DNA of 64,000 nucleotides from the IMG/VR virus record IMGVR_UViG_3300027847_001698; one strand, given 5' to 3'. The position numbers were made by a program, and so were the translations under genes. This DNA is from a virus (Duplodnaviria; Caudoviricetes). Each line of letters opens with the position of its first letter. Position 1 is the stretch's first letter. This document shows, piece by piece, positions 10,687 to 31,261 of the stretch. A model generated the notes under the pieces. It saw only the letters and a list, made by a program, of their open reading frames with translations, was not told where the DNA came from and did not search any database.

Positions 10687-10753
10687 AAAACGTCTCCCTA
10701 TATCTTTTGACTATTCTTTATAGTTATATGTTCTTTAAATTTTAAATCTAACT

Positions 10754-11806: not shown

Positions 11807-11810
11807 ACTA

Positions 11811-12059
11811 TCATCCTAATTCTGTTCTAGTATTGCGTCCGTCTACAATATGAAGTTCACCCATCATATCTTTAATAAAACTTGTTACATCATTGTGATA
11901 TATTCGTTGATTTGTCTTCGAATCAACAACAGTTACACTTGAAAAATCAAGGAGATATTCTAATTTTTGTTTCTTCTGTTGTACAATAAGTCGACTAATA
12001 CAAGGTATCGGAACCGACAGTGGAGGATCATCTTTAACTCTAGCATTTTTTCTTGCCAT
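11811..12059 (-). CDS. Hypothetical protein
   Basis: Co-oriented, tightly packed ORF. Confidence 0.55.
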   Translation of the reverse strand: MARKNARVKDDPPLSVPIPCISRLIVQQKKQKLEYLLDFSSVTVVDSKTNQRIYHNDVTSFIKDMMGELHIVDGRNTRTELG

Positions 12060-12122
12060 AAAATTATCACCTTGTTAACAAATTAATTAATCTTATTAAT
12101 AGGCCATATGTGATCTAAACTA

Positions 12123-12971
12123 TTATAAACCCAAATCAAGTTCCACATCAAGTTCATCTACAACTGAATCAACAACATCCGTTGAATTATCCTCAAATGT
12201 AGGAGCATCATCGTCAACAGATGTCTGCCTTGAATGTCCCCCACTGCCACCATCAACATTGCCAGATAAATCAAACTGCAACTTAAATGGATCTTGCCAT
12301 TTAGACGCCTTCTGGACTATTGATTCTACTGACTTGTCTGGTAACTTCTTGTCTAATGAAAACCCAAATACACTTTTCTTGCCATAATCACTATCAACTG
12401 AATTACGTGTAACTTTAGTTATGAAACGTCTAGGTGTAATGACCGACTCTTCAAACGCATCAGTTCCATCAGATAAATTATCTAACTCCTTAGCCCTCTC
12501 TGAAATTTGATTCAAGAATTCAATAACTGGTCCTACTTTAAGACCATTACACTTGAAAAATATCAAAGCTGCACGTTCGGGATCAGTTTTATCTAGAATT
12601 GGCTTTCCTGCACTATTAACCGCTGCACCAGCTATAACATAATAACATCTAGCTTCCGGAGGATAATTTGGATCCGAATCTGGATCTGCCGAAAAATAAG
12701 TTAGTTTATCTCTATCTCCTAACTTCGTATATGCAGCTCTATACTTGTGTATGAATAACACAATAAAACTAACTTCATCTTCATTTCTAAATACATATTT
12801 TTCATCTACATCTCTAGAATCAAACATACCCGGCCATATTGAATGTAACTTGTGTAATTGTTGTTCATCTCTTTCCTGGCCTGAAATGAAACATGAAATA
12901 AACGGTCCGGACTCTTTTCTTGTAGCAATCGACGTTTCAGCCAGATGCCCATATTCTTCTGCTTTAATCAT
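12123..12971 (-). CDS. Putative single-stranded DNA-binding protein
   Basis: Beta-rich core, Gly linker and a long acidic tail ending in hydrophobic residues (DELDVELDLGL), the usual layout of phage SSBs. Function is inferred only. Confidence 0.45.
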   Translation of the reverse strand: MIKAEEYGHLAETSIATRKESGPFISCFISGQERDEQQLHKLHSIWPGMFDSRDVDEKYVFRNEDEVSFIVLFIHKYRAAYTKLGDRDKLTYFSADPDSDPNYPPEARCYYVIAGAAVNSAGKPILDKTDPERAALIFFKCNGLKVGPVIEFLNQISERAKELDNLSDGTDAFEESVITPRRFITKVTRNSVDSDYGKKSVFGFSLDKKLPDKSVESIVQKASKWQDPFKLQFDLSGNVDGGSGGHSRQTSVDDDAPTFEDNSTDVVDSVVDELDVELDLGL

Positions 12972-13165
12972 TTAAAAACTCCATAAGAAAAATAACTGAA
13001 TGGTTTTATAATCTCCATAACTTATCAACAATCTATAAACTACATCTTCTTGGTTTTGCTTATTAAATACAAAATCCCGATGTAATCAACAGATAACGGG
13101 TCATAACTTATTTCTTCAATCGTAAATTAATATATATGGACTATCAATCTAAAACCAAGTAAAGT

Positions 13166-13405
13166 TTATGGTTGTACAAACGATACAAGATTTTGAGGAT
13201 TAGTAAAATCTATAGTTATATTAGGTGCAGTAGCGGCAGTAACAGTTTCTAACAATCTAGTTATTCTGTTATCTAATTTACAAGGAATGATTATTTCAGA
13301 CTGATCTACAAACTTGAAATATACTTGGTCCATTGATGGCTGAACTGCCATTACGTCACAGTTATTTCTAGTAACGGTCATGCCATGTGTCATAATTGTT
13401 AACAT
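13166..13405 (-). CDS. Hypothetical protein
   Basis: Co-oriented ORF 2 nt after the previous gene. Confidence 0.6.
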   Translation of the reverse strand: MLTIMTHGMTVTRNNCDVMAVQPSMDQVYFKFVDQSEIIIPCKLDNRITRLLETVTAATAPNITIDFTNPQNLVSFVQP

Positions 13406-13407
13406 TT

Positions 13408-14025
13408 TTATTCTACTCCTGTTTGGATTGCGATTTTATTTTCTACAATTTTAGTTTTATATTTCATTATTAATTTAACAACTGTATTGAACACATCTTC
13501 TTTTGATCCAGTTATTAGATAATAATAAACATGTTTGGGTATTGAGTTCTTAAGTTTTTTTATATTATTTATAAACGAATTATAATATAAATCTAGATAT
13601 TCTAAAAGTGTTTCTCTATCATGCATAAAAAATTTATAATCATCAGCAGGAATAGCTCTAGCTAATAAATCACTACAATCTCCTTTTTCAAAAAATCCTA
13701 ATAATACAGTCAAAATTAAACCAGGTTTATTAACTGAATATCTATCTATCAGAAGATCTTCTAGTGTAGTTAACCCGTATATCGTTATTAATTTCTCCAT
13801 ACAAATATTGTAAAAGTTATATAGTGCATCTTGATCTAATTCTTTTAAAATATCATTTAAAAATAGATCTATATTATACGCACATTCCACAGTACCTATA
13901 GTTTCAGAGATAGAATCAACTCTATACTGAGCTTCCCCAGCCAGAATTGCTGACTCTTGATCTCTAGAATCATCCTCTCTAAAAGGATTAACTACAATAG
14001 ATCTATAATATTCTAATGATTCCAT
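13408..14025 (-). CDS. Hypothetical protein
   Basis: 205-aa ORF with no recognisable motif. Confidence 0.65.
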   Translation of the reverse strand: MESLEYYRSIVVNPFREDDSRDQESAILAGEAQYRVDSISETIGTVECAYNIDLFLNDILKELDQDALYNFYNICMEKLITIYGLTTLEDLLIDRYSVNKPGLILTVLLGFFEKGDCSDLLARAIPADDYKFFMHDRETLLEYLDLYYNSFINNIKKLKNSIPKHVYYYLITGSKEDVFNTVVKLIMKYKTKIVENKIAIQTGVE

Positions 14026-14290
14026 CTTTAATATTTATTCTCATTTTGTTAAAAAACATTCTTTTAAGATTAAAAAAACAGGGGAAGAGATTTAATGTAT
14101 AATACAACACCACAAGATAATACAACCCACTCCTGTTATCTTATGAAAATATATATAGTATGATACCATATATAAGGCATAGCCCCAGAACAAATCATCC
14201 AGAATAACATTAACGAAAATAAAATATATATTATCCAAAACTGGGTCTACTTATGTTATTATTCAATATAATAACCGCAGGAGACATATC

Positions 14291-14659
14291 ATGTCAGAAG
14301 AAACAATGGCAGTCGAAGAAGTTACAAAAATAGTCTTAGGTGACTATGGTTGGTTATTTCTAGTTGGTATCATTGTATTAATGAGCAGATCACTGATTAC
14401 TAATATAGTAGCATCAATGATGATTCGTGGCCCTAAATTTTCAGAATTAGATATAATATTTATATCTGGCAGAAAAGCAATGATACTAAATATAGGAATA
14501 AGGAAAACTTCGTTTTATATGTATGATAGACAAACGTTAATGATAGTTCCTAATGAAAAATTAAATTCATTAACTATAGAAGTTGTAGCAGCAGGAATAG
14601 AATTACCTGATCGTCTTAATGGTCATGATAAACCAAAAGACGAAGTAATTTTAGACTAA
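14291..14659 (+). CDS. Short MscS-family-like membrane protein
   Basis: AGGAG RBS; one N-terminal TM region followed by DIIFISGRKAMILNIGIRKT...IVPNEKL, which resembles the MscS middle beta-domain (GDxIxIxG...IGxRxT...IPNxxL). Confidence 0.55.
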   Translation: MSEETMAVEEVTKIVLGDYGWLFLVGIIVLMSRSLITNIVASMMIRGPKFSELDIIFISGRKAMILNIGIRKTSFYMYDRQTLMIVPNEKLNSLTIEVVAAGIELPDRLNGHDKPKDEVILD

Positions 14660-16572
14660 CCTTCTACTATTCCTTTAAACATATCCTTACTCCATTGGAC
14701 TATCTCATCCATCCGTGTTGACAAGTTAGCAGATCCACCAGTATCTAAAGTTAGAGTATAAATATACACCGGTGTATCTTGGCCTATTCTATGGATTCTA
14801 TCACTCGCTTGTTGATAGTCGGTATATCGCCACGGCATATTTAAAAAGATAAGAGTATTTGCTTCAATCAGAGTTACACCAGTTGCCATTGTCTGAACTG
14901 TAGCAATTAAAGGATTTCGTTTAGCATCAGAAGCAAACTCAGCTAATAATGGTTTGATTCTAGAGGATGTATCACCATATACAAGAATAGGATTAAATCT
15001 ATTTTTTTTGAGGTATGATTCACATTGTAATACCACTCCCCGATATGTGGAAAAAATAACAGTCTTCTTCTCAGATTTGTTTATAATATCAATGATTCCA
15101 CTTCTAGGAATCATATGTGCATACATTTCAGATCTCAATTTATTTAACAATCCACCTAGTACTTCTCCTCTAATTTTAAGATCAACATATTTTATAACTG
15201 ATTTAGACTTCAAGAACTTCTTTTTTAAATCCGAAGGTAGCAATTTATAAATTGTGGCTTTCTCGTATATATTTGCCCATACTACATTTTCAACTTGCCG
15301 TTTGTCTCTAGCGTTATATCCCGATTTTTTTAATCTTTTTACTATATATAAATATCTAACAAAATCAGAATCATCATTTAATTGAGTGGATACATATTTT
15401 AAACATTCATTATAATCATTTAAATACTTTCCATAATTCTTATTATAATGTGCTTTTCGTTCAATGACGTATGCCATTATTGTCTTTTTAACTTCTTCTG
15501 TTGTATAATCTTTAGAATTAGAAATCTTTACCTTTATCTTGATTTCATTCTTTTTAGGAAGATTCAATACCTCATGCTTCATTTTCCTATGCATCATGAA
15601 TCCCAATCTATTGTTGAGTATATCTAACGCTATAGTGGTATTAAGTCCAAATGCCTTTTTAAATATAGCAAGAGCTTCATCGTCAAAGAAAGGATCTAAC
15701 ACTTTCAAATAAGGAAGCATGTCAATCCCCAATGCTTTTATAGGAGTTCCGCTCATAAATAAAACATCATTACAATTAGTGAATTCTTTTATCTTTACTA
15801 AATTTGTAGTTCTGACTGAATTTATATTCTTAAAATTATGACTCTCATCTACAATTATTCCAATTCTCTTTGCTTTAGATATATGTGATGCGACTTGAGC
15901 AAATTTAGACAGTGATTCATAATTAAAAATATAATACTTTACTGGCCGAGAAGGAGGTGGTTCCCCAACAATCCACGTTGATTGTTCATCTTTAAATGCT
16001 GCATTTATCTCATTTCTCCATACTGTACTTACAGTATTTTTTGGAGCTATGATAATTACACAATCTTTAGATAGCCCCTCCATTAATGCGAGGCTTGTTA
16101 CAGTCTTTCCTAATCCTTGTTCAAATGACAAAATATAACCATTCAAAAAATACTTTTGTTTCATTGTATCATACAACTTAATAAACTGTTGCTGATATGG
16201 CTTTAAAGTAAATACAATACTTTTATTTATTCTTGATCCCTTTACTCTAGATCTTACATTACCATTTAATGTAGATAACCATGAATCTTCTAATATATTA
16301 TTAACTATTATTGCATATATATTTCTACCTGGAAGCTGTCCTAATATATAAACCAATTCTGGCAAAAAGAAATTATGAATTCGTATAGTACTATTTCCAA
16401 AAAATTTAAATCCTATAGCTTCTAATAATTTAGTTATTTTACTAGTTTTATATACCCGTTTAATATCTAATGCAAATCTATTAACTGGAAAAGATTTTAT
16501 TATAGTATATTTATCTTTAGTAATAACGTCATTACTAAATAATTCAGAAACATAAGTAAACTTAGGATTCAT
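14656..16572 (-). CDS. SNF2-family helicase/translocase
   Basis: LKPYQ, EQGLGKT, IIAPK, VDESHNFKN, MSGTP, GVTLIEA, QASDRIHRIGQ. Confidence 0.85.
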   Translation of the reverse strand: MNPKFTYVSELFSNDVITKDKYTIIKSFPVNRFALDIKRVYKTSKITKLLEAIGFKFFGNSTIRIHNFFLPELVYILGQLPGRNIYAIIVNNILEDSWLSTLNGNVRSRVKGSRINKSIVFTLKPYQQQFIKLYDTMKQKYFLNGYILSFEQGLGKTVTSLALMEGLSKDCVIIIAPKNTVSTVWRNEINAAFKDEQSTWIVGEPPPSRPVKYYIFNYESLSKFAQVASHISKAKRIGIIVDESHNFKNINSVRTTNLVKIKEFTNCNDVLFMSGTPIKALGIDMLPYLKVLDPFFDDEALAIFKKAFGLNTTIALDILNNRLGFMMHRKMKHEVLNLPKKNEIKIKVKISNSKDYTTEEVKKTIMAYVIERKAHYNKNYGKYLNDYNECLKYVSTQLNDDSDFVRYLYIVKRLKKSGYNARDKRQVENVVWANIYEKATIYKLLPSDLKKKFLKSKSVIKYVDLKIRGEVLGGLLNKLRSEMYAHMIPRSGIIDIINKSEKKTVIFSTYRGVVLQCESYLKKNRFNPILVYGDTSSRIKPLLAEFASDAKRNPLIATVQTMATGVTLIEANTLIFLNMPWRYTDYQQASDRIHRIGQDTPVYIYTLTLDTGGSANLSTRMDEIVQWSKDMFKGIVEG

Positions 16573-17922: not shown

Positions 17923-20900
17923 TTATCCTATATCAGTCTCTAACATCATTCCACGCATATAAGTATCAAATAGATCCTTAGTGGGAGATGTTCTTGGGGT
18001 TCTGTATTCTGCACTTCCTGTCTGAATAATATCAGCTACAATTTGATCTTTAGTTACATGATCATCAGCTAAAGGTCCAAAGAATTCTCTTAAAATATTA
18101 GTTGCTCCATGATTTATAATAGAATAACTATCCATCTCACCAATTCTCTGTCCTCCACCCTTACCAGACATAGCCTGTTTAGTAACAGAGCTTACCATTC
18201 CAGTTGATCTTGCTGACAATTTAATTCCACTTTGTTGTTCAAGTTTCTTGTAGTATAGGTATCCTACAGCAATATCAGTGGATGTACTTGTTCCATACTC
18301 TTTAATTTTTAATTTATATCCTTCCTTTGCACCAACTAACCGTAAGGCAGCTCTAATATGTATAATAGTTGGCTCTTGGAATGGAGGAACAATGATAGGA
18401 ATAAATCCACCTCTATCTACAACAGTTTTTAACCATTTTTGATATGTAGCATTGGTCATTGAATTGACTGCAGTAACCACTTGTCTAGAATAGGACTTTC
18501 CTTTAGTTCCATCTAATACGCCTAACACTTTAGTAAGTAGAGCAATAGTCTTATCATTTTTTCGTGGTCCATAACCAATTATTTTAGTAGCCATGAATTT
18601 AGAAATTAAGGATAAATATAATTCTTTAATGGTTGAGGGGTTCATTCTATTTACAATAGCAATAGGATTAAGAATGATATCTACATGTTCACCCCAAGGA
18701 GTTAGTGGCATATTCTCTTCTTTTTCAATTTTAGCAATAACGCCCTTTCCACCATAGTTGTTAGTGATCTTGTCTCCAAGTTCAGCAACCTGAGTTTCTT
18801 CTATTTTAAATCTGATTAATACTCCAGAAAACTGCTGTTTCTCAGAACCAACTCTAGCAGTAAATTTCTTTGGTGTTGCGTGACCTTGTGCTTCCTCATA
18901 TTTTTCTTTATATGCAGCATGTGCCTTCTTTAATGCAGGAAATTTACTTATAGGAGAATTTGCATAAACCTCTAGGGAAATAATCTTTCCACCTGGAGAT
19001 TTTGTTATTAGCTGACCTTGCTGTATTTCATCTTCTTCGAGACCAACAACATCTTCCACTTCTTTAGAAATTCTCATTAGAAGTGGTTCGCCCCGCTTAG
19101 TCAATACTCCTTCTTGATTAATAAAACTAACTCTGTCTGTTGGTTTTACCAAAATCTCAATTTCATGATATGCTTCAGATGTTAATTTTGTTTTTGCAAT
19201 TTTGTCTGAAACAATATATCCATCCTCATATGAATAACCTTTCCATGTCATAACTGCACACAATAAATTAGTTCCTACAGAAATAACGCCATCTTGAATA
19301 TGTTTCCCTTCCGCAACAATCTGATTCTTTTTAACCTTCTGATTCTCAACCACAATAGGCTTGAAGTAATTTAATGCACTTTGTCCCTGACCAGCTCTTA
19401 ATATCTTAGTAGCAAGAGATATAGTTTGAAGTCTACCAGATTTTAGTTTTATAACAATAGCATTAGTGGTAATACTTCTAACTATACCATCACTAATTGC
19501 TTTCTTAACATAGTTATCAGATAACATAGATGTTAATACGCTTTCATATCCAGTTTGAACAATAGGAGCTTCTTCTCCATTTATAGGAATAGCCTGCCGA
19601 CCTTGGCTTCCTGCGAACATAACTCTAGCTCCATCACAAGATCCGATAAATGGAATCATAACTGAATTTACCCCTAAGATTCCTGACTTCTCATCTCTGC
19701 CATCAGTCTTATCAACAAAGGCACCTCTAGAATTAGTTATAGCAGCACCAACAGAAAGCTGATTAATTATTCCTACATTTTCACCTTCTGGTGTATCCAT
19801 TGAATCTATATTGCCATAATATGTAGGATGAATATTTCTAGCTTGTTTTGTTATTGCATTAGAATCTGGTATACCACCTTCACCAATAGGCTTAAGTCTA
19901 GTCAAGCATGATAATTCTTCAGTAGGATTAATATTCTCTAAATCATCCATCAGTTTAGAGTTAACAATTCTCTTTATAGCTTCTGTTACATCTAACTTGT
20001 ATTCAGCATCTTTAAACCCTGAAATTCTACGCTCTCTGTAATCTGTATATGACCCCAAAATCAATTTCTGAATTTGGTGGGCAAATACTTCTGATGTTCT
20101 AATTCTTTGCTTAGATATATCATTTCGGTCATCAACTCTTTCCTTTACTAACTCTTCACAAATATATAAAACAATTTGGGGATATGTAAATGGTAGAAGT
20201 TTTGATTTCAGTACTTGAGTAGCAACAGGTTCCATTATATTCTCTAATACTTGCTTTACTTTCCATGTAGAGTTTCTATTACCTGTTATTTTGATTAATG
20301 CCTGTTCAAATGTTTTTTGATCCTCTAAGTTATCTTCTGTAAAAATATTTGGAGATTCTGCAAATGAATTTAATAAAATTCTTGCGGCATCTGTTTTATA
20401 ATCTACAACAATAAAGTTACCATCACTCAATATCAGATAATTGATTCCTTCAGGTGGTTCTGTGTCAACTATTTTATATTTAACACCAAACAATCGACAT
20501 GTCTTCTTAAATCCAATGTAATAACCCATGAGAACAATTAATGGGAGTTTATATCCCCCTATCAATATCTGAAAGTATTGCTTTTTAACGGTCTTCTTGA
20601 GGTAAATAGTAGAAACGGCATATAGCGTTTCTAACTTGGCTTGTCCCTTTTTAACAAAGAAAATAGGATCTAATATGATCTGATATGTAAGATACTTCTT
20701 CTTTCCATTTATTAAAAATGTACCATCACCCATTAGACGGGGTATTTGGATTTCTACTTCATGTTTATTTTTCTTGTCATCTTGTAATACAACAATATAC
20801 CTATCATATAAAGAAGGATTCAAGTCACCAGGATCAGATGGGATAGGTTCCTTTTTCATACTGAATAGTTTCAATGGATAATCTTTTTTCTCCAACAATT

Positions 20901-22122
20901 TAAATGAATTTAATAAATCCTTTTCAAATGAGGTAGCAAAATCTAATTGACGTTTATTTAATATATGACTAGGATCTTTATGTTCAACTAACCCATGTAT
21001 ATCAACTTTAGAATGAATCAAATCTCTATTATTGTTTTGTGGTGGATCTCGTTTAACCACATCAGATAACAATTCCTTCTTAACCTGATCCAACATATAC
21101 TTTCTTCGTTCAGGAACAACTGTTTCAACTGTTTCATTTGATTTTTTAAGATCTCCAGATACACTAAACAAAATAGATTTTGTTGCTAGAGTTGTCGCTG
21201 CATTCTTATCAATACTTCTAGATAAAATACTTCTCCTAACTTGAGGTGGCATTGCTTTCAGGTAATTTGCAACTGCATATCTAATAGTATCTCTTTCTTC
21301 TTCTGTTTTTTCTATAATCGGATCAACTGTTACTGTATCTTCTGTATCTGAAATAATTTCATCAGTCGTCTTGTTATTGGGTAACTTAACAACCATGTCA
21401 TCATTAGGAACTATATCAATTTTACCAACTGCCAAATCAGCAGCAGCCATTGCTTCATCTTGACTTATAAAATCAGTTTTAGTCGATATAAGGGACTTTA
21501 AGATATTTCTAATTCTTGTATAGGGGAGACTATCATTTTCATTCCCCAACATTGAATATTTAGTTATTCCGTTTTTGATGATCGCTATTAGGAAATATTC
21601 AAAAGGATTTTCACCTTCAGTCTTTAACATTTCTAGAATTGGCCAAGCTCGTCTTTTAGTTATTCCTCTTGGTAATTCCTCATCTAGATTCACAACATAC
21701 AGTAAGACTTTCTTTCGGCCTTCATGTAAGCCTCTAAGACCAGATAAATATTCCTTTATCCTTGAACTAACAACGTTTCTTCTGTAATTTCCTTTTTTGA
21801 ATTTTACATCAATAGCATCCAAGTATCTAGTTAAATCAATATAAATATTATCTGCTTGACGTTGTAAATTTCTAGCTACAATTAATCCCAGCTTTCTATA
21901 AGGAAGAATTGCCTTACCATTAATCATAACTCTAGGATATCTAGACGCTATAGGAACAATCTTTCTGACATGTGTTTTCTTTATCTTAAGATGTTCATAT
22001 GTTGTTATAAAATCCACATTCTCTGGATAGAAAAAAATGGAATATGAACTAGCCCGTGAATTATCAATTCCTATTTGGGCAGTAGAAAACGGGAATAATT
22101 TTAACCGATCAATAAATATCAT
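17923..22122 (-). CDS. rpoB: Multi-subunit RNA polymerase beta subunit with long N-terminal extension
   Basis: GTFLING (aa 467), DTPEGENVG, GSQGRQA, YSYEDG, GDKITNNYGGKGVI, DIILNP, GQRIGEMD. Confidence 0.95.
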   Translation of the reverse strand: MIFIDRLKLFPFSTAQIGIDNSRASSYSIFFYPENVDFITTYEHLKIKKTHVRKIVPIASRYPRVMINGKAILPYRKLGLIVARNLQRQADNIYIDLTRYLDAIDVKFKKGNYRRNVVSSRIKEYLSGLRGLHEGRKKVLLYVVNLDEELPRGITKRRAWPILEMLKTEGENPFEYFLIAIIKNGITKYSMLGNENDSLPYTRIRNILKSLISTKTDFISQDEAMAAADLAVGKIDIVPNDDMVVKLPNNKTTDEIISDTEDTVTVDPIIEKTEEERDTIRYAVANYLKAMPPQVRRSILSRSIDKNAATTLATKSILFSVSGDLKKSNETVETVVPERRKYMLDQVKKELLSDVVKRDPPQNNNRDLIHSKVDIHGLVEHKDPSHILNKRQLDFATSFEKDLLNSFKLLEKKDYPLKLFSMKKEPIPSDPGDLNPSLYDRYIVVLQDDKKNKHEVEIQIPRLMGDGTFLINGKKKYLTYQIILDPIFFVKKGQAKLETLYAVSTIYLKKTVKKQYFQILIGGYKLPLIVLMGYYIGFKKTCRLFGVKYKIVDTEPPEGINYLILSDGNFIVVDYKTDAARILLNSFAESPNIFTEDNLEDQKTFEQALIKITGNRNSTWKVKQVLENIMEPVATQVLKSKLLPFTYPQIVLYICEELVKERVDDRNDISKQRIRTSEVFAHQIQKLILGSYTDYRERRISGFKDAEYKLDVTEAIKRIVNSKLMDDLENINPTEELSCLTRLKPIGEGGIPDSNAITKQARNIHPTYYGNIDSMDTPEGENVGIINQLSVGAAITNSRGAFVDKTDGRDEKSGILGVNSVMIPFIGSCDGARVMFAGSQGRQAIPINGEEAPIVQTGYESVLTSMLSDNYVKKAISDGIVRSITTNAIVIKLKSGRLQTISLATKILRAGQGQSALNYFKPIVVENQKVKKNQIVAEGKHIQDGVISVGTNLLCAVMTWKGYSYEDGYIVSDKIAKTKLTSEAYHEIEILVKPTDRVSFINQEGVLTKRGEPLLMRISKEVEDVVGLEEDEIQQGQLITKSPGGKIISLEVYANSPISKFPALKKAHAAYKEKYEEAQGHATPKKFTARVGSEKQQFSGVLIRFKIEETQVAELGDKITNNYGGKGVIAKIEKEENMPLTPWGEHVDIILNPIAIVNRMNPSTIKELYLSLISKFMATKIIGYGPRKNDKTIALLTKVLGVLDGTKGKSYSRQVVTAVNSMTNATYQKWLKTVVDRGGFIPIIVPPFQEPTIIHIRAALRLVGAKEGYKLKIKEYGTSTSTDIAVGYLYYKKLEQQSGIKLSARSTGMVSSVTKQAMSGKGGGQRIGEMDSYSIINHGATNILREFFGPLADDHVTKDQIVADIIQTGSAEYRTPRTSPTKDLFDTYMRGMMLETDIG

Positions 22123-22125
22123 GTC

Positions 22126-22551
22126 TTACTTCAATTTCTTTAATGTAACAAGTCCTTTCTTTTTACTAGCAGTAAGACTCCATTTGCCTTCCAATATCTC
22201 AGACGTAAATACGAAACGTTCTGATCCTGCATTCACATTTCCTTTCAGATTATAGCTTCCCTGTCTTGTCTTTCCTGCAAACTTAATCCGTTGTTTAAAT
22301 GTTTGAGGTTTAGAAGCTGGCATTATACGGCCCATAATCTCATCCCCCTTTTTTAACAGTTCAATTGGTGTTTGAGATATGAGCATATATGACGCCCATC
22401 CGTCTGCAAGATTGGTTCCATCTGAAACTGAATTAAAATATTTAAAATGTAAAGCTAACTCTTTCCCACTATTTGAAAAGGATATTGCTAATATATTATC
22501 CATCTTTGCTTCAAACAGAATACGTTTAATGTAAAAAAATTTATTATCCAT
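22126..22551 (-). CDS. Hypothetical protein (possibly virion-associated)
   Basis: Tightly packed between the peptidase and beta genes. Confidence 0.65.
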   Translation of the reverse strand: MDNKFFYIKRILFEAKMDNILAISFSNSGKELALHFKYFNSVSDGTNLADGWASYMLISQTPIELLKKGDEIMGRIMPASKPQTFKQRIKFAGKTRQGSYNLKGNVNAGSERFVFTSEILEGKWSLTASKKKGLVTLKKLK

Positions 22552-22553
22552 GG

Positions 22554-23417
22554 TTAATGTCCAATTTTCTTGTTTTTCATTGCAGATATAATTTTATCTG
22601 CTGAAATATTAAATATGCCCGCCACCTTTGTTGCTACATTTTTTGGTTTATCAATTTTTTCATTTTTCATTGATCCTCTGGCTTCTTCTATTCTTTTTCT
22701 CATATCGGGATGAGTTTTGAATATTTCAGTAAACTTGTTAACTGCGACCATAAATTTAGACTTGGATTTATTTAAATTCATTTTGTATGCATTAGCTAGA
22801 ATTTTAAATGCTTGAATTAACTCCTTTCCGTATCCCATCTTCACAGCAAAATCATCAGCTCTATACTCAAATCGTCTTGACATATAATTAGGAACTGTGG
22901 CTACTAATAGAGCAGTGACAAACATAAAAATACCTACTATTTTAAGGTCTTTGATATTCCCGGACTTCATGAGATCCAGTGGCTTGCCGATCTCTAAATT
23001 AAGTGACACTAACACCTGAACAAGAATAAAAGCACTAGATCTCTTAATAACATCATTATTAGTAGAATGTGCCACTTCGTGTAATAATATCGATATTGCT
23101 TGTCTATCATTAGTTAATTTTACAAGACTATCGGTTATGTACAAATTTTTACCTCCAAATGTAAACGCATTTGGGATTGGCTTTTTTCCACCACTCATGT
23201 CATCTATTTCATGAACGATCCATCCACCTTCCTTCTTTGCCTTCTTCATAATATCATTAAGAAGTTTAGTAAACTTCTTATGAATTTTAGTAGAATTTGC
23301 TAACTTAGCAGCTCGGAGCATACACACCGTAATCATAATAACTACAAAAACAGGAGTTGCCATGAAGGTTGGACTATCCATTAACCCTTCTTTGACTTCT
23401 AAATATTTTTTATTCAT
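22554..23417 (-). CDS. M48/HtpX-like zinc metallopeptidase
   Basis: PNAFTFG, LLHEVAH (HExxH), EYRADDFA, THP; hydrophobic helices. Confidence 0.85.
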   Translation of the reverse strand: MNKKYLEVKEGLMDSPTFMATPVFVVIMITVCMLRAAKLANSTKIHKKFTKLLNDIMKKAKKEGGWIVHEIDDMSGGKKPIPNAFTFGGKNLYITDSLVKLTNDRQAISILLHEVAHSTNNDVIKRSSAFILVQVLVSLNLEIGKPLDLMKSGNIKDLKIVGIFMFVTALLVATVPNYMSRRFEYRADDFAVKMGYGKELIQAFKILANAYKMNLNKSKSKFMVAVNKFTEIFKTHPDMRKRIEEARGSMKNEKIDKPKNVATKVAGIFNISADKIISAMKNKKIGH

Positions 23418-23492
23418 AATATTAAATATTCCTTATTTATTATTTTGTTCTGAGATTTAAGGTTTTATAAATATGAACCATAACCAACTGTC

Positions 23493-26400
23493 TTAAAGTG
23501 TACCATTTACCATTTGTTCCAATATGCTTTCACTCTGGTCTCTATCATAAGTGAGACCAGTCATAACTGCTAATCCCGGATTTTCAAAACTAAGAGCAGA
23601 TAACCAACTTTCCAATGAAGGTATCTTTTTAAGACTTACTACTATTGCATTATAATCTTTGTTTAATCTTGCTGGGAATGACGGGTTAGATTTATCTCGT
23701 AAAAGTTGACTTGCGAGAATTTCAAAATGAACCATATCTGCACCTGTCATTGGGCCATACTGATCATAAATTTTCATACAAAAGTGATCGGCTGATTTCC
23801 ATGGTTTCTTACCAGACAGTAAATGATTAATTATTCTAACCTTATCTGAAAAATCAGATGTAGAAGCAGGACATGTAAATACTGCTGAGTTATCAGAAAA
23901 CGGAATAGTGATTATATTACCATCATCTTGTACTTGGCGTCCCTTCAATGGAATATGAGTATGAAAATCCAATGCACAATCAATCACAACTCTATCTTTT
24001 GTAACTATCTCAAAATAACCATACTCTAATTCAAATGTATCACCAACTTTCTTAATATCCTTTTTCGGATCTAAAAATTGATTTCTATTAATGATAATAC
24101 TTCCAGATGTTTTAGTCACTAAGTCATTGATCTTTTGTGAAAACATTTTAGAGAAATACTGACTAGTCTTAACATCCATATTTGCGGTTAATGGCTTTAT
24201 GATATCCACAGCAGTAACAGATATCGCTCCACCACTATGAAATGTATTATGATTTTGAATTCCTCCCAACATATAATCTTTAGTATTGGTTTGGATATCG
24301 TATACAGGATAATCCCATTTCCAAATATCTTTTACTGTAGATACTACATCAAAGCCACGAACAGGCAAGTCTCTTCTTATTTTTATTGGTAGAATTTTAC
24401 CATTTGCTTTTAGTTTTTCACTACTAAGATTCTCATTTTTTAGAAATCGTATATCAATTGCAAAATTAGGTCTTTTTTGTTTACACCCCTTAGATCCTTC
24501 TTTATCTGGAGGGACAATACATGTATTACATTTATAACCTAACTTATCACATATAGCTTTAATCTGCTGAACCAGATAATAACTACAAGTGTACACCCTG
24601 CAACACGTACTAGCTGTATTAAATACAGTCCCGTCTCCATCAATCATTCCAGATAGAAAATCTTTTAACCATGATTTACTAAAATCTATAAAATTCTCTG
24701 GGAGTCTCTTTTCCCATGCATACGAACCATAAACAACATCATTAACATATCTATCATTATCTACAATAGTAATATATTTATCATAAACTCTAATATCATT
24801 ATATTGTTTTTTCAATTCTGATATTATTCTAGGCTTTATATAATTATCATGTTGGGAGATTATGTTCCCTTTAGTATTTCTGCCTTCTCCCGCTTTACAT
24901 CCTTCGGCACAATATATTCCAGCAACATAACCACTTACACCAGGAACTACTCTCTTTTTATTATTAGATGCAATGGTCGAATCTATCCATATGGCATCAT
25001 GTTTTGTTAACTCAGATGCTTCTATCTCAATTAATTCTTCATCGGTTATTGTAAATGGTGTTCGGGTAGATTGTGTTTCATTATATAATCTATCCCCAAT
25101 AAGCCTACACTTGTCATTAGAATATTTTGAATGAATAGAAGTTTTCTTGATCCATAATGGATGATTGGATTGGCACACCAACGTATGGCCACTTTTTGTA
25201 GTTATGAACATCATCTTTTCAGTAGGATCATGTTTTTGTATTGTAAGTGCCTTAACCTCTCCTTCCTTTCCTTGTACGGTAAAAGTAGATGGTAATTCTT
25301 TTGTTTCTTTTCCATCAATAATATCAATATCAGATGATACTGAATTCCATAAATCCTTAAATGCTATAAGGTTAGAATTATGATGAACTAATCCATCTGA
25401 ACATTTCATAATCATCTGGGTTCCACGTTCACCAAAGATCTGACCAGCCAATACTCCAACGTAAGGAGTTCTATTTCTTTCTAATAGATCACCATAACAA
25501 GTTTTGCATATTTTAGGAGATATACAATACAGTGGAGACTTTAAAGAAATGACTTTACCCATAGCTTTACTGGGATCTAGTTTAATAGGATTACCAACTT
25601 TATTAAGATAGTATCGGCCTTCTAATCGTCTTGCTATATCTGGAGTTACTTTTAATTGGAATCCCCGTTGGGTCTTACAATTAAAAATAGTAGGATCAGC
25701 TTCTACCCGTTGAAGTGCGAATACTAACTGTCTGCTCAAATATCCAGTATCAGCAGTATTCAATACACGATCAGCAATACCACGTCTACTTCCTGCTCCA
25801 CTCATAAAGAAATCTTTACTGGTCATTCCTTCTGCATATGACTGGGCAATTGGCTCTTGGATATTCCCTTCATTATCAGAAATTAATCCTTTAGCTACAA
25901 GTATCTGTCTAGCTTGATCATAACCACCTTTTAGAACTCCAGCTTTTCCTAACGTCCCAATATTGCCATCTTTCTTTTCTAAATGAGCACCAATATCAAC
26001 AGTGGATTGTTGAATTATTCTATCAGCCTCTTGTGGTGATTTTCCTACTAATTGTTTTTTAGCATCGACAATAGATTTTGGAATTTCAAGGTCTTCAAGG
26101 CCAAATGAAGGAGAACCAATTGTTCCATACTTATAAGATATTTTTAATATCTTATCAGCCCAATCAACATATTTTTCTCTTCCATATGTTATAAAGTATT
26201 CATTAGCTATATTGTTTAGCTTCTTCTGATTCACTTGTTCATTTATAAATGTATGACCATCAGGAAAGATATCATTAAACATAATCCTTCCAACTGTGGT
26301 ATCAAGTGTTCCATACTTTACTTTATCATTAATAGGCAATCCTTTTAACTGTCCAGGTCTAGTTACCCTTACTGCCGCCTTTCTAGACTTCGAATCCTTA

Positions 26401-27665
26401 GTAAGCAAATAGATACCAATTGCACTATCTTTATCAAACGAATCACTAATTTGATTTATTGAGTCCTTTGATGTGGTGACCATCATCTTGTCCTTTGCTT
26501 CCTCAATAGCCTGTCTAGTTATTGGGACATAGACTGCCATTTGATCCCCATCAAAGTCTGCATTATAAGCTGAACATTTCATGGGATTAATTCTAATGGT
26601 ATTTCCGTCTACTAATACAGGTTTAAATGCTTGCACCGATTCAGCATGGAGACTAGGATCTCTTTTTGCTAATACAATTTTATCTTTGATTGCATTATTT
26701 GTTGAAACTACTAATATGTCATATAACTCTTGAGATATTTCATCATGCTTTGATATTGCAATGAATAGTCTTCTTAGACTTAATGCAGATAATTTACTTC
26801 CGTCAAAACGTTCTAATGCATCAGAAAGCTGTTCTTTTGGTATATTTCCACTATTCAATAAATCAAATATAATAAATGGTTCAAATAGTTTAACAAGAAG
26901 CCTTAATGGTATTCCTAATTCGTCTGCACGTAGTTCGGATGCAGCTCCAGATATAACTGCCCTAGCTGTAAAATCTACTCTCTTACCCAATAAATCACTT
27001 CTAAGTAATCCTTTCTTCTTAGAGACTTTACTTGTAAGATAATTGTATAATTCGAGTACTAACTCATGCATTCTAAATGCTAATACATCATATACGGGTC
27101 CTGATGTTTGTGTTCTTAATTGTAATGACAATCTAAGAATTTTAAGGTAGTAATCATTTAAAGGATTAACTGTAATATCCCCAGTATCAGTGATCTCAAG
27201 TTGTCTATAATCTGGAGGAATAATGATACACTTATCAGTAAATGCATGTCCTTTCTTTGTATAGAAATCAACCATTCCAATTAAATCAGCTCTCGATTTT
27301 GAATCTGCTGAAAATTTTATTTTTGACCAATTATCAACCACTGAAGACATTCCCGTTATCTCACCATCCTCATCAAGAATCAATTCACCGTTCTGTAGAG
27401 TAAATGTTTTCTCTCCTGACATTGCAGTTATAACAGATCTCTTTAATCTCCTTATAGTACCAAATAACGCTGGATGTAAAACATTACAATTTAAATCAAT
27501 GAAAGAATATATTTTTCTTCTATCTGAAGTATCAACTGCCCCAAAGATCTTTTCAGAGAAAAATCCTTCGGGGTGAAATGTTGTAGTTTTTCCTACGAAA
27601 TATTCAGTAGATGTAACAGGAACTAATTTAGATGTCTCCTTATCTATATTCAACAATTTTAGCAT
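23493..27665 (-). CDS. rpoC: Multi-subunit RNA polymerase beta' subunit, intein-containing
   Basis: IIPPDYR, LLGKRVDFTARAVI, catalytic YNADFDGDQM, TADTGYLSRQL, C-x-C-x-CxxC zinc site, and GERGTQMIMK^TFHSGG split by an intein. Confidence 0.95.
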   Translation of the reverse strand: MLKLLNIDKETSKLVPVTSTEYFVGKTTTFHPEGFFSEKIFGAVDTSDRRKIYSFIDLNCNVLHPALFGTIRRLKRSVITAMSGEKTFTLQNGELILDEDGEITGMSSVVDNWSKIKFSADSKSRADLIGMVDFYTKKGHAFTDKCIIIPPDYRQLEITDTGDITVNPLNDYYLKILRLSLQLRTQTSGPVYDVLAFRMHELVLELYNYLTSKVSKKKGLLRSDLLGKRVDFTARAVISGAASELRADELGIPLRLLVKLFEPFIIFDLLNSGNIPKEQLSDALERFDGSKLSALSLRRLFIAISKHDEISQELYDILVVSTNNAIKDKIVLAKRDPSLHAESVQAFKPVLVDGNTIRINPMKCSAYNADFDGDQMAVYVPITRQAIEEAKDKMMVTTSKDSINQISDSFDKDSAIGIYLLTKDSKSRKAAVRVTRPGQLKGLPINDKVKYGTLDTTVGRIMFNDIFPDGHTFINEQVNQKKLNNIANEYFITYGREKYVDWADKILKISYKYGTIGSPSFGLEDLEIPKSIVDAKKQLVGKSPQEADRIIQQSTVDIGAHLEKKDGNIGTLGKAGVLKGGYDQARQILVAKGLISDNEGNIQEPIAQSYAEGMTSKDFFMSGAGSRRGIADRVLNTADTGYLSRQLVFALQRVEADPTIFNCKTQRGFQLKVTPDIARRLEGRYYLNKVGNPIKLDPSKAMGKVISLKSPLYCISPKICKTCYGDLLERNRTPYVGVLAGQIFGERGTQMIMKCSDGLVHHNSNLIAFKDLWNSVSSDIDIIDGKETKELPSTFTVQGKEGEVKALTIQKHDPTEKMMFITTKSGHTLVCQSNHPLWIKKTSIHSKYSNDKCRLIGDRLYNETQSTRTPFTITDEELIEIEASELTKHDAIWIDSTIASNNKKRVVPGVSGYVAGIYCAEGCKAGEGRNTKGNIISQHDNYIKPRIISELKKQYNDIRVYDKYITIVDNDRYVNDVVYGSYAWEKRLPENFIDFSKSWLKDFLSGMIDGDGTVFNTASTCCRVYTCSYYLVQQIKAICDKLGYKCNTCIVPPDKEGSKGCKQKRPNFAIDIRFLKNENLSSEKLKANGKILPIKIRRDLPVRGFDVVSTVKDIWKWDYPVYDIQTNTKDYMLGGIQNHNTFHSGGAISVTAVDIIKPLTANMDVKTSQYFSKMFSQKINDLVTKTSGSIIINRNQFLDPKKDIKKVGDTFELEYGYFEIVTKDRVVIDCALDFHTHIPLKGRQVQDDGNIITIPFSDNSAVFTCPASTSDFSDKVRIINHLLSGKKPWKSADHFCMKIYDQYGPMTGADMVHFEILASQLLRDKSNPSFPARLNKDYNAIVVSLKKIPSLESWLSALSFENPGLAVMTGLTYDRDQSESILEQMVNGTL
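24246..25403 (-). mobile_element. Intein (386 aa) with LAGLIDADG homing endonuclease
   Basis: Starts at Cys (CSDGLV), block B-like QSNHPLW, endonuclease motifs YVAGIYCAEG and FLSGMIDGDG, ends His-Asn, +1 residue Thr. Removing it restores GTQMIMKTFHSGG. Confidence 0.9.
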
Positions 27666-27712: not shown

Positions 27713-28855
27713 TTAGAGAGTCTTTTCGAATTCTTCTCTACCATCTACATCACTTTGCTTAACTTTACTTAGATTATAATTATCTACCATTTCTGCAAAT
27801 AGGTACATAATAATAGCTCCACATATAATCGGAATTGCAACCTTTATTGTTAATTCCCCAATCTTGGTTCCATGAAATTTTCCTTTACTAAGAGCGCTAC
27901 TAAGAGATTTAGGGGGAGCTAAGTCATGATGTTTAATCTTCTTACCAGTAGAATCAACAACCTTTTTAATGAGACCTGTATTCAGGTCCTTTGCCGTGTC
28001 CTTGATTATTGTTGATCCGTCTGTCGACCATATGGCTTTCTTTGTCTTTTCATAGGAGCCTTTTATCCCCGTAAGCCAAGGAATTTCATCACCAGCATTT
28101 GCAACAAAATCTTTAATACCCCATATACCTCTAGCTAAACCTTTACCCAATACACTAAATGCTCCAATTACTTTAGTTTTGAATACTTTTGTTCTAATAA
28201 AAATAAGGAATGCTGTAATTATAGCAGTACCAATAGCAAATCTACCCTGTTCCTTTTCTAACTTTAAGGTAGTAAACCATCTCTTAAATCCAGAAATTAC
28301 ATTTTTAGATGCAGATTTAATATCAATTACTTTTGATTTATCTCGCATATCTTTAGTTTGTTCAACTGCATTAATAATACATGTTATAGTTAAAATCAAT
28401 GCGATAGGAATAACAATAGGGGCATTTAATAAACCCAATGATACTCCAAATCCAACAGTCCCTAATGCCTTAACTACCACGACCAATGATGCATCAAATA
28501 CCTGATCAACATCTCCAGCTTTCAATCCAGGAAGTTTTTTGTCAAGATAACCGGTCAGCTTCTTTAAAAATGATTTTGCTTCTCGGGTTGTTTTAGGTCC
28601 ATCACGTTTAACAGGAGAGTTAGTGCGAGATGGCTTAGATGTATCACCAAATAGATCATCATCCGCCGACGCTAATGCTAGTTGTGTCGCATTAATAACA
28701 ACTTTCTTATGATTACTAAATACTTTCTTTATATCCGCCCAATTTTTAATGTTAGATGTTGAATCTATTGCTTTCTTTAATGGACGCAGTTTAGTAAATT
28801 CTAATACAACGCTTCCCTCTTGTAGATAAGAAGTAATTTTTTTCTCTGAACTCAT
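27713..28855 (-). CDS. Hypothetical membrane-segment protein (possible virion/ejection protein)
   Basis: Several hydrophobic helices separated by Lys-rich regions; N-terminal YLQEG motif. Confidence 0.65.
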   Translation of the reverse strand: MSSEKKITSYLQEGSVVLEFTKLRPLKKAIDSTSNIKNWADIKKVFSNHKKVVINATQLALASADDDLFGDTSKPSRTNSPVKRDGPKTTREAKSFLKKLTGYLDKKLPGLKAGDVDQVFDASLVVVVKALGTVGFGVSLGLLNAPIVIPIALILTITCIINAVEQTKDMRDKSKVIDIKSASKNVISGFKRWFTTLKLEKEQGRFAIGTAIITAFLIFIRTKVFKTKVIGAFSVLGKGLARGIWGIKDFVANAGDEIPWLTGIKGSYEKTKKAIWSTDGSTIIKDTAKDLNTGLIKKVVDSTGKKIKHHDLAPPKSLSSALSKGKFHGTKIGELTIKVAIPIICGAIIMYLFAEMVDNYNLSKVKQSDVDGREEFEKTL

Positions 28856-28870
28856 TAGTGTAATCCTATT

Positions 28871-29764
28871 TTACTGTGTCTCTGGTGGCTCTATGCTACC
28901 TGTTTTACGTTCTGTAGATTGGCTTTGGTCAGCTTCTCTAGCTGCTACTTTAAATTTCTTCAATCTTTCTTCTTCTGTTTTTAAGATGTCATTATATTTT
29001 GCAACATGCTCAATCAGTTTACGTTGACATGATTCTGGATTATCGGTCACTTTACAATCACTTACATCCCGACGCAATTTAGCTATGACATCTGCTAATC
29101 CTCCAATTTTACATCTAGAAATACATATTTTTAAATCCAAACCTTGGTGATTCTCCTTACGACATTTATCCTTACATAAACTTTTTCTTTTCTCAATTGA
29201 TATAAATAATATTTTAGTTAATAGTTTAGACATTATCTCATAACCAACCATAATCATAAATACTGCGGCAGCCGCCTTTCCACCCTTCCCAAGTTTTCCT
29301 GCTATATTACTTAACCCTGTATTAAGTCCTCTAGATTTTGGCGTAAGACCTAATGTCTTAGCTGTGTTCCCAATCTTCTTAGCTACTGCCGTATAATATC
29401 CTTTATTTTTACCAGTCTTAAATGAATGTAATAATTTCTTTTTTATTCCGCCTGCAAACAATGCAAGAGATAAAGTCATTATACCAGAAATTATTCCTTC
29501 AGTATTTTTTAACCTAAGATTCCTCTGGGCATCAGCTTCTACTTCTCCTAGATTAGCTTCTTCTAACATATCAAAGTTTCTTCCAACTGAAAGAACTACT
29601 TCATTATATGACATTTCATGGACAATATAACTAGTCAATCCTCCATAGTCTTTATACTCGCCTTGATCAATTGCATCTAATAGATATGCTCTACAAAAGA
29701 TATCTACACTATTTTTATCTATCATTCTATGAAACTCCAATTTTTTAATTTGTTCTTGTCGCAT
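28871..29764 (-). CDS. Hypothetical protein with hydrophobic helices and Cys-rich helical C-terminus
   Basis: Two hydrophobic segments; spaced cysteines CKDKC...CISRC...CKV...CQ. Confidence 0.65.
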   Translation of the reverse strand: MRQEQIKKLEFHRMIDKNSVDIFCRAYLLDAIDQGEYKDYGGLTSYIVHEMSYNEVVLSVGRNFDMLEEANLGEVEADAQRNLRLKNTEGIISGIMTLSLALFAGGIKKKLLHSFKTGKNKGYYTAVAKKIGNTAKTLGLTPKSRGLNTGLSNIAGKLGKGGKAAAAVFMIMVGYEIMSKLLTKILFISIEKRKSLCKDKCRKENHQGLDLKICISRCKIGGLADVIAKLRRDVSDCKVTDNPESCQRKLIEHVAKYNDILKTEEERLKKFKVAAREADQSQSTERKTGSIEPPETQ

Positions 29765-29854: not shown

Positions 29855-31261
29855 ATGATAAAACTCAACAAAACAGAGAAGAGGAAATATGATGTTGTAT
29901 ACATCAACGGGGAAGAGGAAGAAAATTTGGTTTCTCTAGACCTTATTTTTACCCCTGCCACAAATAAGTTTGACAAGATTGTAGAGTTTGTAGAAGATTG
30001 CTCTTTGACATTAGGAGCCGAATTTGATGATTGGTTCAAATCATATATAACAGAATACATATCATCAGGATATGATTCAGGAATCATCAAAAAGAATATT
30101 CCGCAGATAACTTCATTGTGTGATAAATACCTTGAAGCATGTGAAATTGATTTTGATGGATATGTGGATAAAGGTAAAGTATCTAAAAATTCGATTTTTT
30201 TCGATTCGCCTGAAATCAAGAAGATCGTGCGCGTATCTAATTATTTAAAGTTATATTTTATTATATCACAGGACATCAATCTAAAATTACCAATAAAGTT
30301 TCATAGAGAAGTATACAATGAATTAGTAGCACCAATAACGGAATGTGATATTCTACACAAGCTATTCAAGATTGTATCTTCTAAAACATATAAGTATAAT
30401 ATGTCTGATTCATATATGTGGGAATACATTAGAACGATCTACTGTAAAACTACGGACATGCACATCATGTCTATTTTTAATTTTATTGTCAACAACATTC
30501 TTGTAGCATGTGATACAAGAAAGAATCCAATACCATTCATCATTACAGTTGTTGATGAATCTATTAGATGGATCCTTCAAAGTGTATATAAGGATGCAGT
30601 TGTATATTCTGATACAATAAACACAGAAGATACATATTCAACTCCAGGTAAAGATAATCTCAAAACATATGCATACAATGACTCAATTGGTAAATTGGTT
30701 GTTATCGCATATAACTATCTGGAAGATCATGGAATTTCCGATGTATCGTTTAATGAATCAGTAAAGGCAAATAATGAAATTTCATTATTCTCAACCTATT
30801 TGACATATCCGATTTTATGTAAAGTACTTAACATCCCATATCGTCATTTCCTAACGATTCCTGCTGAACATGGTTATCTGTTGAATATCTTATTGTACCA
30901 TCACTTACCTGAAGGATTCAAACGTAAATATTCGACAATTATAAATCTCCTATTATTCTACAACAAGAATAAGGCGATATCGAAAACAACTTATAAAATT
31001 AAAGATATAAATCATTTTACTTCGACTACTGGGAACTTCCTTGGATTCAAAAACCAAATGTTTGTTTATGAATTCTATTCTAGTATTGTAGGTAAAATTG
31101 CTAGAAACTCATATATCGGTTTTAAAACCGGAGAAGAGATATCTAATTTTCCTTTAGCCAAACTTGAAAAGGATTTAGTATCATTTTATAATGATTACTT
31201 TGATGGTAAGTTAGATGAACCATTTAAAGAGATTCAAGATAAATTAGATTCACTAGTATAA
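29855..31261 (+). CDS. Hypothetical 468-aa helical protein, opposite strand within the RNAP/virion block
   Basis: Long ORF with AGGAG RBS; no motif recognised. Confidence 0.75.
   Translation: MIKLNKTEKRKYDVVYINGEEEENLVSLDLIFTPATNKFDKIVEFVEDCSLTLGAEFDDWFKSYITEYISSGYDSGIIKKNIPQITSLCDKYLEACEIDFDGYVDKGKVSKNSIFFDSPEIKKIVRVSNYLKLYFIISQDINLKLPIKFHREVYNELVAPITECDILHKLFKIVSSKTYKYNMSDSYMWEYIRTIYCKTTDMHIMSIFNFIVNNILVACDTRKNPIPFIITVVDESIRWILQSVYKDAVVYSDTINTEDTYSTPGKDNLKTYAYNDSIGKLVVIAYNYLEDHGISDVSFNESVKANNEISLFSTYLTYPILCKVLNIPYRHFLTIPAEHGYLLNILLYHHLPEGFKRKYSTIINLLLFYNKNKAISKTTYKIKDINHFTSTTGNFLGFKNQMFVYEFYSSIVGKIARNSYIGFKTGEEISNFPLAKLEKDLVSFYNDYFDGKLDEPFKEIQDKLDSLV

Follow-up and report, generated by a model that had tools for sequence, protein, structure and literature searches.

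What kind of enzyme is the multisubunit RNA polymerase (RNAP) whose two catalytic subunits are encoded in IMGVR_UViG_3300027847_001698, a 193,518-bp virus record of IMG/VR with a completeness rating of 61%? We analyzed a stretch of 64,000 nucleotides of this record (bases 89369-153368, here called the window), for which an earlier note, made from the letters alone, had proposed an unsplit, virion-packaged RNAP with a long N-terminal extension of beta. The beta' and beta subunits encoded in the window (P0001 and P0002) are referred to as set B, and a second pair, found outside the window (P0005 and P0006), as set A. Two multisubunit RNAPs per phage are a hallmark of phiKZ/AR9-like jumbo phages: one is borne by the virion and serves the early genes, whereas synthesis of the other follows infection (PMC7598289, PMC13282480). 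Judged from sequence, set B fits best as an unsplit equivalent of the virion RNAP (vRNAP) of jumbo phages, paired with an unsplit enzyme of the non-virion type (nvRNAP). It is probable that an uncultured marine jumbo phage encodes here, as two whole proteins, the counterpart of an enzyme that reviews of 2020-2026 know only in five or more pieces. Among open-access papers and preprints we found none on an unsplit enzyme of the virion type.

The polymerase genes of the window

As had been proposed, beta and beta' of set B are each one polypeptide. Both are encoded by a single uninterrupted open reading frame (ORF) on the minus strand, and the two genes are split apart by ORFs of 287 and 141 aa (Table 1). 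Pfam recognizes Rpb2 domains 3, 6 and 7 in beta (PF00562 at E 7.8e-37, PF04565 and PF04560) and Rpb1 domains 2, 3 and 5 in beta' (PF00623 at E 4.5e-31, with PF04998 and PF04983). The catalytic motifs GDK...GGKG and GGQRIGEM of beta are intact, as is the NADFDGD Mg-binding loop of beta' (aa 368-374), and the best solved-structure matches of beta are bacterial beta subunits (E 1.9e-58). Set B is predicted from these data to be a bacterial-type two double-psi-barrel RNAP core in which both catalytic subunits are whole and the active-site motifs are kept.

The beta' precursor contains an insert in the trigger loop, at the ...TQMIMK / TFHSGG junction. A 47% identical beta' relative of 1017 aa (P0127) reads ...TQTIMR/TFHVGG at this point and has no insert. 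The inserted segment begins with C755 (Cys1), ends with HN at 1139-1140, is followed by T1141 at +1 and includes a LAGLIDADG-type motif; its Pfam matches (Intein_splicing, LAGLIDADG_3 and Hom_end) are below the curated cut-offs. In every feature tested it is a predicted class 1 intein with a LAGLIDADG homing endonuclease, and beta' must lose it by splicing for activity. The spliced length is exactly 1004 aa, in agreement with the value of about 1004 aa given beforehand. The beta' of another relative (contig L025) retains the intein.

High sequence divergence and a trigger loop interrupted by an intein are what could be expected if set B were a decaying duplicate without polymerase activity. 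This explanation is scarcely credible, because the motifs named above and the trigger-loop and bridge regions are intact, the splice residues of the intein are canonical, the family is large and many columns are invariant across 24 relatives.

Set B carries substitutions at the main rifampicin-contact positions (from E. coli: Q513D, F514D, D516E, H526C, S531K and A532P), in line with the earlier description of this segment as strongly diverged; the enzyme would be expected to be rifampicin-insensitive. Pfam models of alpha, omega and sigma-70 regions 2 and 4 (PF01000, PF01192, PF04542 and PF04545) had no match in the 193.5-kb record, which agrees with the earlier reading but is provisional since the record is 61% complete.

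We also considered that the genes might be recently captured bacterial rpoB and rpoC, or might belong to host DNA at one end of the record, which carries the label 'provirus' in IMG/VR. Bacterial RNAPs are the best solved-structure matches (E 1e-55 to 1e-58), far above the AR9 nvRNAP (1e-19), and the best beta tree groups set B weakly with bacteria (79/52). However, identity of set B beta to bacterial beta is just ~25-30%, and set B forms its own clade (97/95) outside the bacterial one (99/99) and is not nested within it, as it would be in the refuting case named by the earlier note. The two genes are embedded far within a phage gene array and match the rest of the window in GC content (~32% throughout), and relatives are found on phage-like contigs of up to 254 kb. 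The order beta' then beta is the reverse of E. coli rpoB-rpoC, and neither the extension nor the loss of the zinc ribbon described below occurs in the cellular sequences compared. A bacterial or host origin of this kind is very improbable; on these comparisons set B is clearly not a recent bacterial acquisition.

Features shared with virion polymerases

Set A lies ~24 kb upstream of set B (genome 77305-83117, minus strand; L005:7306-13118). It is unsplit, is closer in character to cellular RNAP, and has the same order, beta' then beta. The finding of this second unsplit RNAP set argues for a two-polymerase, phiKZ-like programme.

To assign the two sets, PHROG families were designated virion or non-virion from proteins with an annotated role in cultured phages. 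On the virion side, phrog_3148 stands for the gp178-type protein of the phiKZ group, such as Churi gp139, annotated 'structural head protein', and phrog_14872 corresponds to g099 of phiR1-37 ('phage structural protein'). The third virion family, phrog_2986, represents beta'-N, whose gene directly precedes those of the gp178/g099 type and is called 'virion-associated' in Shewanella phage SXP01. The non-virion families are phrog_3295, which is AR9 g089, an annotated non-virion subunit, and phrog_2987, the beta'-N of Staphylococcus phage MarsHill, annotated 'non-viral RNA polymerase beta-prime subunit', i.e. non-virion. Set B scored best on the former: beta on phrog_3148 (2.9e-56) and phrog_14872 (2.7e-42), and beta' on phrog_2986 (4.6e-48, from residue 2). 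The best scores of set A were on phrog_3295 and phrog_2987 (3.2e-41 and 2.3e-32). Comparison of the beta' subunits by phmmer gave the same division, with 78.8 bits for set B against Churi vRNAP beta'-N and 49 bits against nvRNAP beta'-N; for set A the values were 17 and 79 bits, respectively.

The N-terminal region of beta' provides a second feature. In set B it goes from IFGAVDT directly to DRRK...IDL, and the CxC...CxxC zinc ribbon is absent there, as the jump from IFG to RR..IDL had indicated. The ribbon is kept at the same point by set A beta', by Cobetia phage Carin-5 and by phiKZ gp55. In the vRNAP beta'-N of Churi and SXP01 it is likewise deleted, and the flanking sequence is similar to that of set B. 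Gene order agrees as well: beta' is upstream of beta in set B, as in the vRNAP loci of Churi, SXP01 and sm033.

The N-terminal extension of beta is another of these features. G467 of the GTFLING motif corresponds to G134 of E. coli beta (MAFFT alignment, RpoB from NC_000913.3), an N-terminal offset of +333 where about 330 extra residues had been predicted. In AlphaFold DB, the N-termini of cellular beta match P0002 from about residue 357 onward, which makes the extension itself ~355 aa long. In phiR1-37 g099 and Churi gp139 the GTF.ING motif is at residues 493 and 577; in set A it is at 94, and in bacteria at 128-134. The extension consists of an alpha/beta N-domain (1-215), an acidic variable linker (216-265) and a helical domain (268-355). 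Conservation is high at residues 1-200 and 300-460 and low in the linker, and residues E34, N35, P63, D96 and Y142 of the N-domain are near-invariant. Alignments over the whole of P0002 (100% coverage, 31-59% identity) were obtained for more than 80 metagenomic proteins, which are 1330-1440 aa long. When a profile built from residues 1-356 was run against 1.84 billion representatives, it found 154 clusters (50% identity), always in the N-terminal position; the extension is thus conserved, a point that the earlier note had left to be checked.

Structure prediction, also suggested there, gave confident AlphaFold models (predicted local distance difference test, pLDDT, of 83.5 for aa 1-530 and 92 for aa 1-356). 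When the extension was modelled without canonical beta residues (aa 1-356), the high-probability matches in BFVD were all vRNAP beta-N-type or phage proteins. They include G4KK38 (1393 aa, the same length as g099; E 2.8e-6), a 921-aa protein of PBS1 (5.7e-6), uncharacterised phage proteins and the 'RNA polymerase beta subunit' of PDCC-1. The AR9 nvRNAP beta-N matched the longer model over just ~181 columns, consistent with a match to the canonical beta part alone. In hhalign, the family extension was collinear with the N-termini of phiR1-37, DC4 and LPJP1 (E 1e-4, probability ~55%). According to these models the extension shares its fold with the N-terminus of gp178/g099-type virion beta-N proteins. 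It is, on the same basis, not unique to the set B enzyme: vRNAP beta-N of cultured jumbo phages appear to carry a homologous one.

The N-domain was also compared with known folds using PDB Foldseek, VIA-align and AlphaFold DB clusters. Only generic alpha/beta matches of the P-loop kinase and GTPase kind emerged, and we assign no enzymatic function from them: matches to zeta toxin/PezT and to the signal recognition particle GTPase reached Z <= 7.2, which is in the noise range, and there is no Walker A motif. An ESM Atlas feature search with beta aa 1-215 gave scores <= 0.77, which are not meaningful. No second copy of the extension was detected in the phage's own genome by a hidden Markov model search of six-frame ORFs. 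A free-standing paralogue of the N-domain, 251 aa long, is encoded between beta' and beta in the relative contig L006 (9242-9997; 31% identity, E 1e-32), and the profile search returned many proteins of 200-330 aa with this domain, some of which are perhaps fragments at contig ends.

Overall, four features that are independent of one another give good support to the homology of set B with the vRNAP lineage.

Promoter-like motifs and the proposed place of set B in infection

The sequence AGAACAAA occurs 31 times in the record, and 21 of these copies are in the 11.8% of sequence that has no ORF of at least 100 aa (binomial p 4e-13); control 8-mers of the same composition have a median of 2 intergenic copies. 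It is found 13-59 nt upstream of the tail sheath gene, two baseplate wedge genes and virion structural genes, and it precedes both set B units. In two relatives, set B genes are preceded by copies of RGAACAAA. A different sequence, TCTATATATAT, occurs 10 times, always in intergenic regions and usually with GAR 8 nt later. One of its copies (genome 86072, minus strand) heads an operon that runs via a small ubiquitin-like cassette into set A. Another copy, at window position 29806 on the plus strand, faces away from the upstream region of set B, toward a gene at 29855-31261. A scan for sigma-70-type promoters was uninformative (110 matches, 101 expected), and terminator-like sites were at background level. 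The arrangement of the two motifs, both of which are candidate promoters, is as expected if set A were produced early and set B late, for packing into the virion.

We think it probable that the two genes encode the phage's own bacterial-type RNAP core, a virion-type counterpart that works as in phiKZ and AR9. Sets B and A would then divide the work as the two polymerases of those phages do. Late in infection, AGAACAAA-type promoters common to tail and baseplate genes would drive the synthesis of set B, which would be packed into the capsid and, at the next infection, injected along with the DNA. Its templates would then be the early units that carry TCTATATATAT-N8-GAR, among them the set A operon, and the set A enzyme would go on to transcribe the AGAACAAA units. 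Set B would need neither alpha, omega nor sigma, rifampicin would not inhibit it, and the N-terminal module of beta might serve packaging and ejection, promoter recognition, or both.

Virion packaging, as proposed in the earlier note, thus has indirect evidence on its side, namely the preference for vRNAP profiles, the ribbon deletion, the fold of the extension and the late-type motif; packaging itself and the timing of expression we infer from sequence only. A number of observations weigh against the assignment. The case for packaging consists of homology and one motif, and AGAACAAA is also present before some genes without an identified structural role. Neither subunit has an N-terminus resembling the T4-type capsid-targeting tag, and a regular-expression search for such N-termini found none in the 193.5-kb record. 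In the library of 1.84 billion proteins the extension profile missed the cultured vRNAP beta-N proteins at E <= 0.001, so that homology of the extension rests on its fold and a weak profile-profile score. Staphylococcus jumbo-phage nvRNAP beta'-N have no zinc ribbon, and its loss is therefore not exclusive to vRNAP. Searches of the record with Pfam tubulin, and by phmmer with phiKZ gp54 (the nuclear shell protein, chimallin) and gp68, gave no match, so the phage is not a demonstrable member of the nucleus-forming phiKZ group. Including gp50, gp69, gp70 and gp75, the phiKZ queries found nothing at E <= 0.01, in what were insensitive single-sequence searches of an incomplete record.

The non-virion beta'-N without a ribbon are those of MarsHill (L016:1691-3001) and DC4 (L024:301-1611). 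Since phiKZ gp55 keeps the ribbon, phage RNAPs appear to have lost it on more than one occasion.

The trees belong to the same side of the balance. The beta core tree (384 columns) comprised set A, set B, cultured vRNAP, cultured nvRNAP and bacteria. Each of the five groups was monophyletic with support of at least 97/95, and set A joined the cultured nvRNAP (beta-C) at 93/87. Besides the weak grouping of set B with bacteria mentioned above, constraining set B and vRNAP together costs 0.6 log-likelihood units (approximately unbiased (AU) test, p 0.43), and in an 11-sequence tree of the beta' N-terminal region their grouping reaches only 70/79. Phylogeny therefore places set B outside bacteria and is compatible with sisterhood of set B and vRNAP as well as with other arrangements of the deep nodes; these nodes speak neither for nor against the earlier suggestion that the enzyme is close to the pre-split ancestor.

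These points could be explained if set B acted inside the cell as a second polymerase of the non-virion kind, such as a middle/late or specialised enzyme, in which the extension is a built-in specificity or assembly factor replacing sigma or alpha. A dissociable factor would fit the free-standing occurrence of the N-domain, as the 251-aa protein of L006 and in the many proteins of 200-330 aa; neither subunit has a recognisable T4-type tag, the evidence on packaging is that given above, and the phylogeny leaves the deep node unsettled. On the other hand, profile scores, zinc-ribbon deletion, extension fold and gene order favour a paralogue of the virion enzyme of cultured jumbo phages, in several of which the homologues are annotated as structural or virion proteins, and the motif upstream of set B is common to tail and baseplate genes. 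We regard a second intracellular polymerase as unlikely, though as an explanation to be taken seriously.

The positions of the polymerase genes and neighbouring features are collected in Table 1. The M48 metallopeptidase gene sits downstream of a late-type AGAACAAA motif, wedged amid the polymerase genes, and in the relative L006 an M48 gene is also located ~5 kb from beta.

Table 1. Features of the two polymerase loci (window positions unless marked as genome positions)
Feature	Position	Strand	Basis and remarks
Set B beta' gene (P0001)	23493..27665	-	ORF/translation; 1390-aa precursor, 1004 aa after intein removal; Pfam PF00623, PF04983, PF04998; best split-phage PHROG phrog_2986
Zinc-ribbon deletion site in beta', aa ~38-62	27480..27554	-	alignment with set A, Carin-5, Churi, SXP01 and MarsHill
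Predicted 386-aa LAGLIDADG intein, aa 755-1140 of beta'	24246..25403	-	exact gap against intein-less P0127; weak Pfam Intein_splicing, LAGLIDADG_3, Hom_end
AGAACAAA motif, candidate late promoter element	23444..23451	-	34 nt upstream of the M48 / 141-aa / beta unit
M48-family zinc metallopeptidase, 287 aa, between beta' and beta	22554..23417	-	HEVAH motif; Pfam PF01435, E 1.8e-22
141-aa ORF of unknown function, immediately upstream of beta	22126..22551	-	ORF; no Pfam or PHROG match
Set B beta gene (P0002), 1399 aa, unsplit	17923..22122	-	ORF/translation; Pfam PF04565, PF00562, PF04560; best split-phage PHROGs phrog_3148, phrog_14872
Beta N-terminal extension, aa 1-356	21055..22122	-	conservation profile, models, BFVD matches, profile search
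GTFLING motif, beta aa 467-473	20704..20724	-	aligned with E. coli beta G134
Rifampicin-pocket (cluster I) segment of beta, aa ~722-750	19873..19959	-	strongly substituted; alignment with E. coli RpoB
Second AGAACAAA motif	29749..29756	-	31 nt upstream of GGAG-preceded ATG at 29725; heads unit of 284-aa ORF, 380-aa ORF and beta'
Two ORFs of unknown function, 380 aa and 297/284 aa, immediately upstream of beta'	27713..29764	-	co-directional ORFs; no PHROG match
Set A beta' (P0005), 919 aa	genome 80358-83117	-	zinc ribbon present, no intein
Set A beta (P0006), 1019 aa	genome 77305-80364	-	normal-length N-terminus, motif at residue 94

Split and unsplit polymerases compared

A 229-kb contig with the same proteins is present in other sources. 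No cultured phage covers at least 80% of set B beta in tblastn, the region has zero megablast matches in 50,697 phage records, and no related loci were confirmed in IMG/VR when it was queried with set B beta. Relatives of set B either have the same unsplit layout or have a beta gene fractured by a putative split intein. The former is represented by L006, with beta' (1017 aa, no intein), the N-domain paralogue and beta (1381 aa) in that order; a DUF7487 protein is encoded there on the opposite strand ~4.4 kb upstream of beta' (889-1788). The latter is seen in L025, a 149-kb contig, at 10001-16281. Its beta is broken between the equivalents of P0002 residues 780 and 781. The N-piece ends with ~100 extra residues, the C-piece opens with ~43 residues ending ...THN/S, and an ORF of 512 aa lies between the pieces. 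This is the layout of a predicted split intein with a free-standing homing endonuclease, and by analogy the fractured beta should be rejoined by trans-splicing. Just downstream of set B beta' in the same contig is a 614-aa protein with DUF7487 and Mom domains (L025:6289-8133).

In seven set A/set B cluster pairs the longest contigs of both clusters are equally long (153454, 92745, 78896, 104052, 97262, 126191 and 149414). This suggests, on the basis of equal longest contigs only, that both sets recur on the same contigs and that the two-polymerase arrangement is typical of the clade. A broader claim, that a marine clade keeps both the virion-type and the non-virion-type polymerase in the original two-chain form, is less likely than not.

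If that claim is true, the duplication that gave vRNAP and nvRNAP predates gene splitting. The five- and four-piece enzymes of the phiKZ/AR9-like phages would then be products of fragmentation and not relics of the multi-piece enzyme, older than the last universal common ancestor, proposed in PMC7824862, and the fracture of beta by a split intein plus endonuclease, as in a close relative, would illustrate in the present how splits get started. Whether duplication or separate acquisition gave rise to vRNAP and nvRNAP is counted among the unknowns in a 2026 jumbo-phage review (PMC13282480). The pieces have been argued to be primordial and later fused (PMC7824862), and a proposal that split genes came from whole ones through mobile introns is relayed in PMC7598289. 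Outgroup-like sequences for testing these views would come from a lineage in which both paralogues are unsplit and closer to cellular RNAP. A version with two polypeptides should also be much easier to express, purify and image than one with five. The conserved module of ~355 aa is a candidate for moving an enzyme of roughly 270 kDa into or out of the capsid, or for replacing sigma, and the two candidate promoter motifs would be immediate templates for testing in vitro. A structural localisation of vRNAP subunits was not found in the literature; gp178, gp180 and vRNAP are never mentioned in the 2026 phiKZ virion atlas.

Among known systems, the nvRNAP of AR9 and phiKZ (PDB 7S00 etc.) resembles set B as an alpha-less and sigma-less multisubunit RNAP of phages, and reviews describe it as rifampicin-insensitive (PMC13282480). 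Unlike set B, its beta-N has no long extension, and set B scores below set A on the nvRNAP families. Unsplit beta' and beta genes in this order are also present in marine and soil tailed phages, namely Cobetia phage Carin-5, Rhizobium phage RHph_TM30 and Vibrio phage Va2. When queried with set A beta', each of these records has one matching place; the phages resemble set A and not set B. The beta' of Carin-5 keeps the zinc ribbon, and an annotated sigma factor (L022:1347-1937) is encoded directly upstream of it.

The mReC polymerases (Weinheimer & Aylward 2020, PMC7481178) come from uncultured aquatic tailed phages, some of them >200 kb, and their unsplit beta and beta' branch deeply, as a clade separate from the cellular ones. 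The text describes a single beta/beta' pair on each contig, and the words 'virion', 'intein' and 'copies' do not occur in it. Set A is the pair that most resembles this description, whereas set B, which was compared with mReC by description only, is a second and more derived pair.

The closest likeness is to the vRNAP of jumbo phages (phiKZ-like, phiR1-37, Staphylococcus, and Bacillus AR9/PBS1; gp178/gp180-type; PHROGs 3148, 14872 and 2986). Both are two-barrel enzymes without alpha, omega or sigma, with a beta' that has no zinc ribbon and a beta extension of the same predicted fold that displaces GTF.ING to residues ~470-580. In the cultured loci beta' is directly upstream of beta, and in both cases a second RNAP set of the non-virion type coexists. 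The cultured enzymes differ in having a core of at least five polypeptides (PMC7598289, PMC13282480), whereas set B, known from its genes alone, has one polypeptide per subunit and a catalytic core much closer to that of bacterial RNAP.

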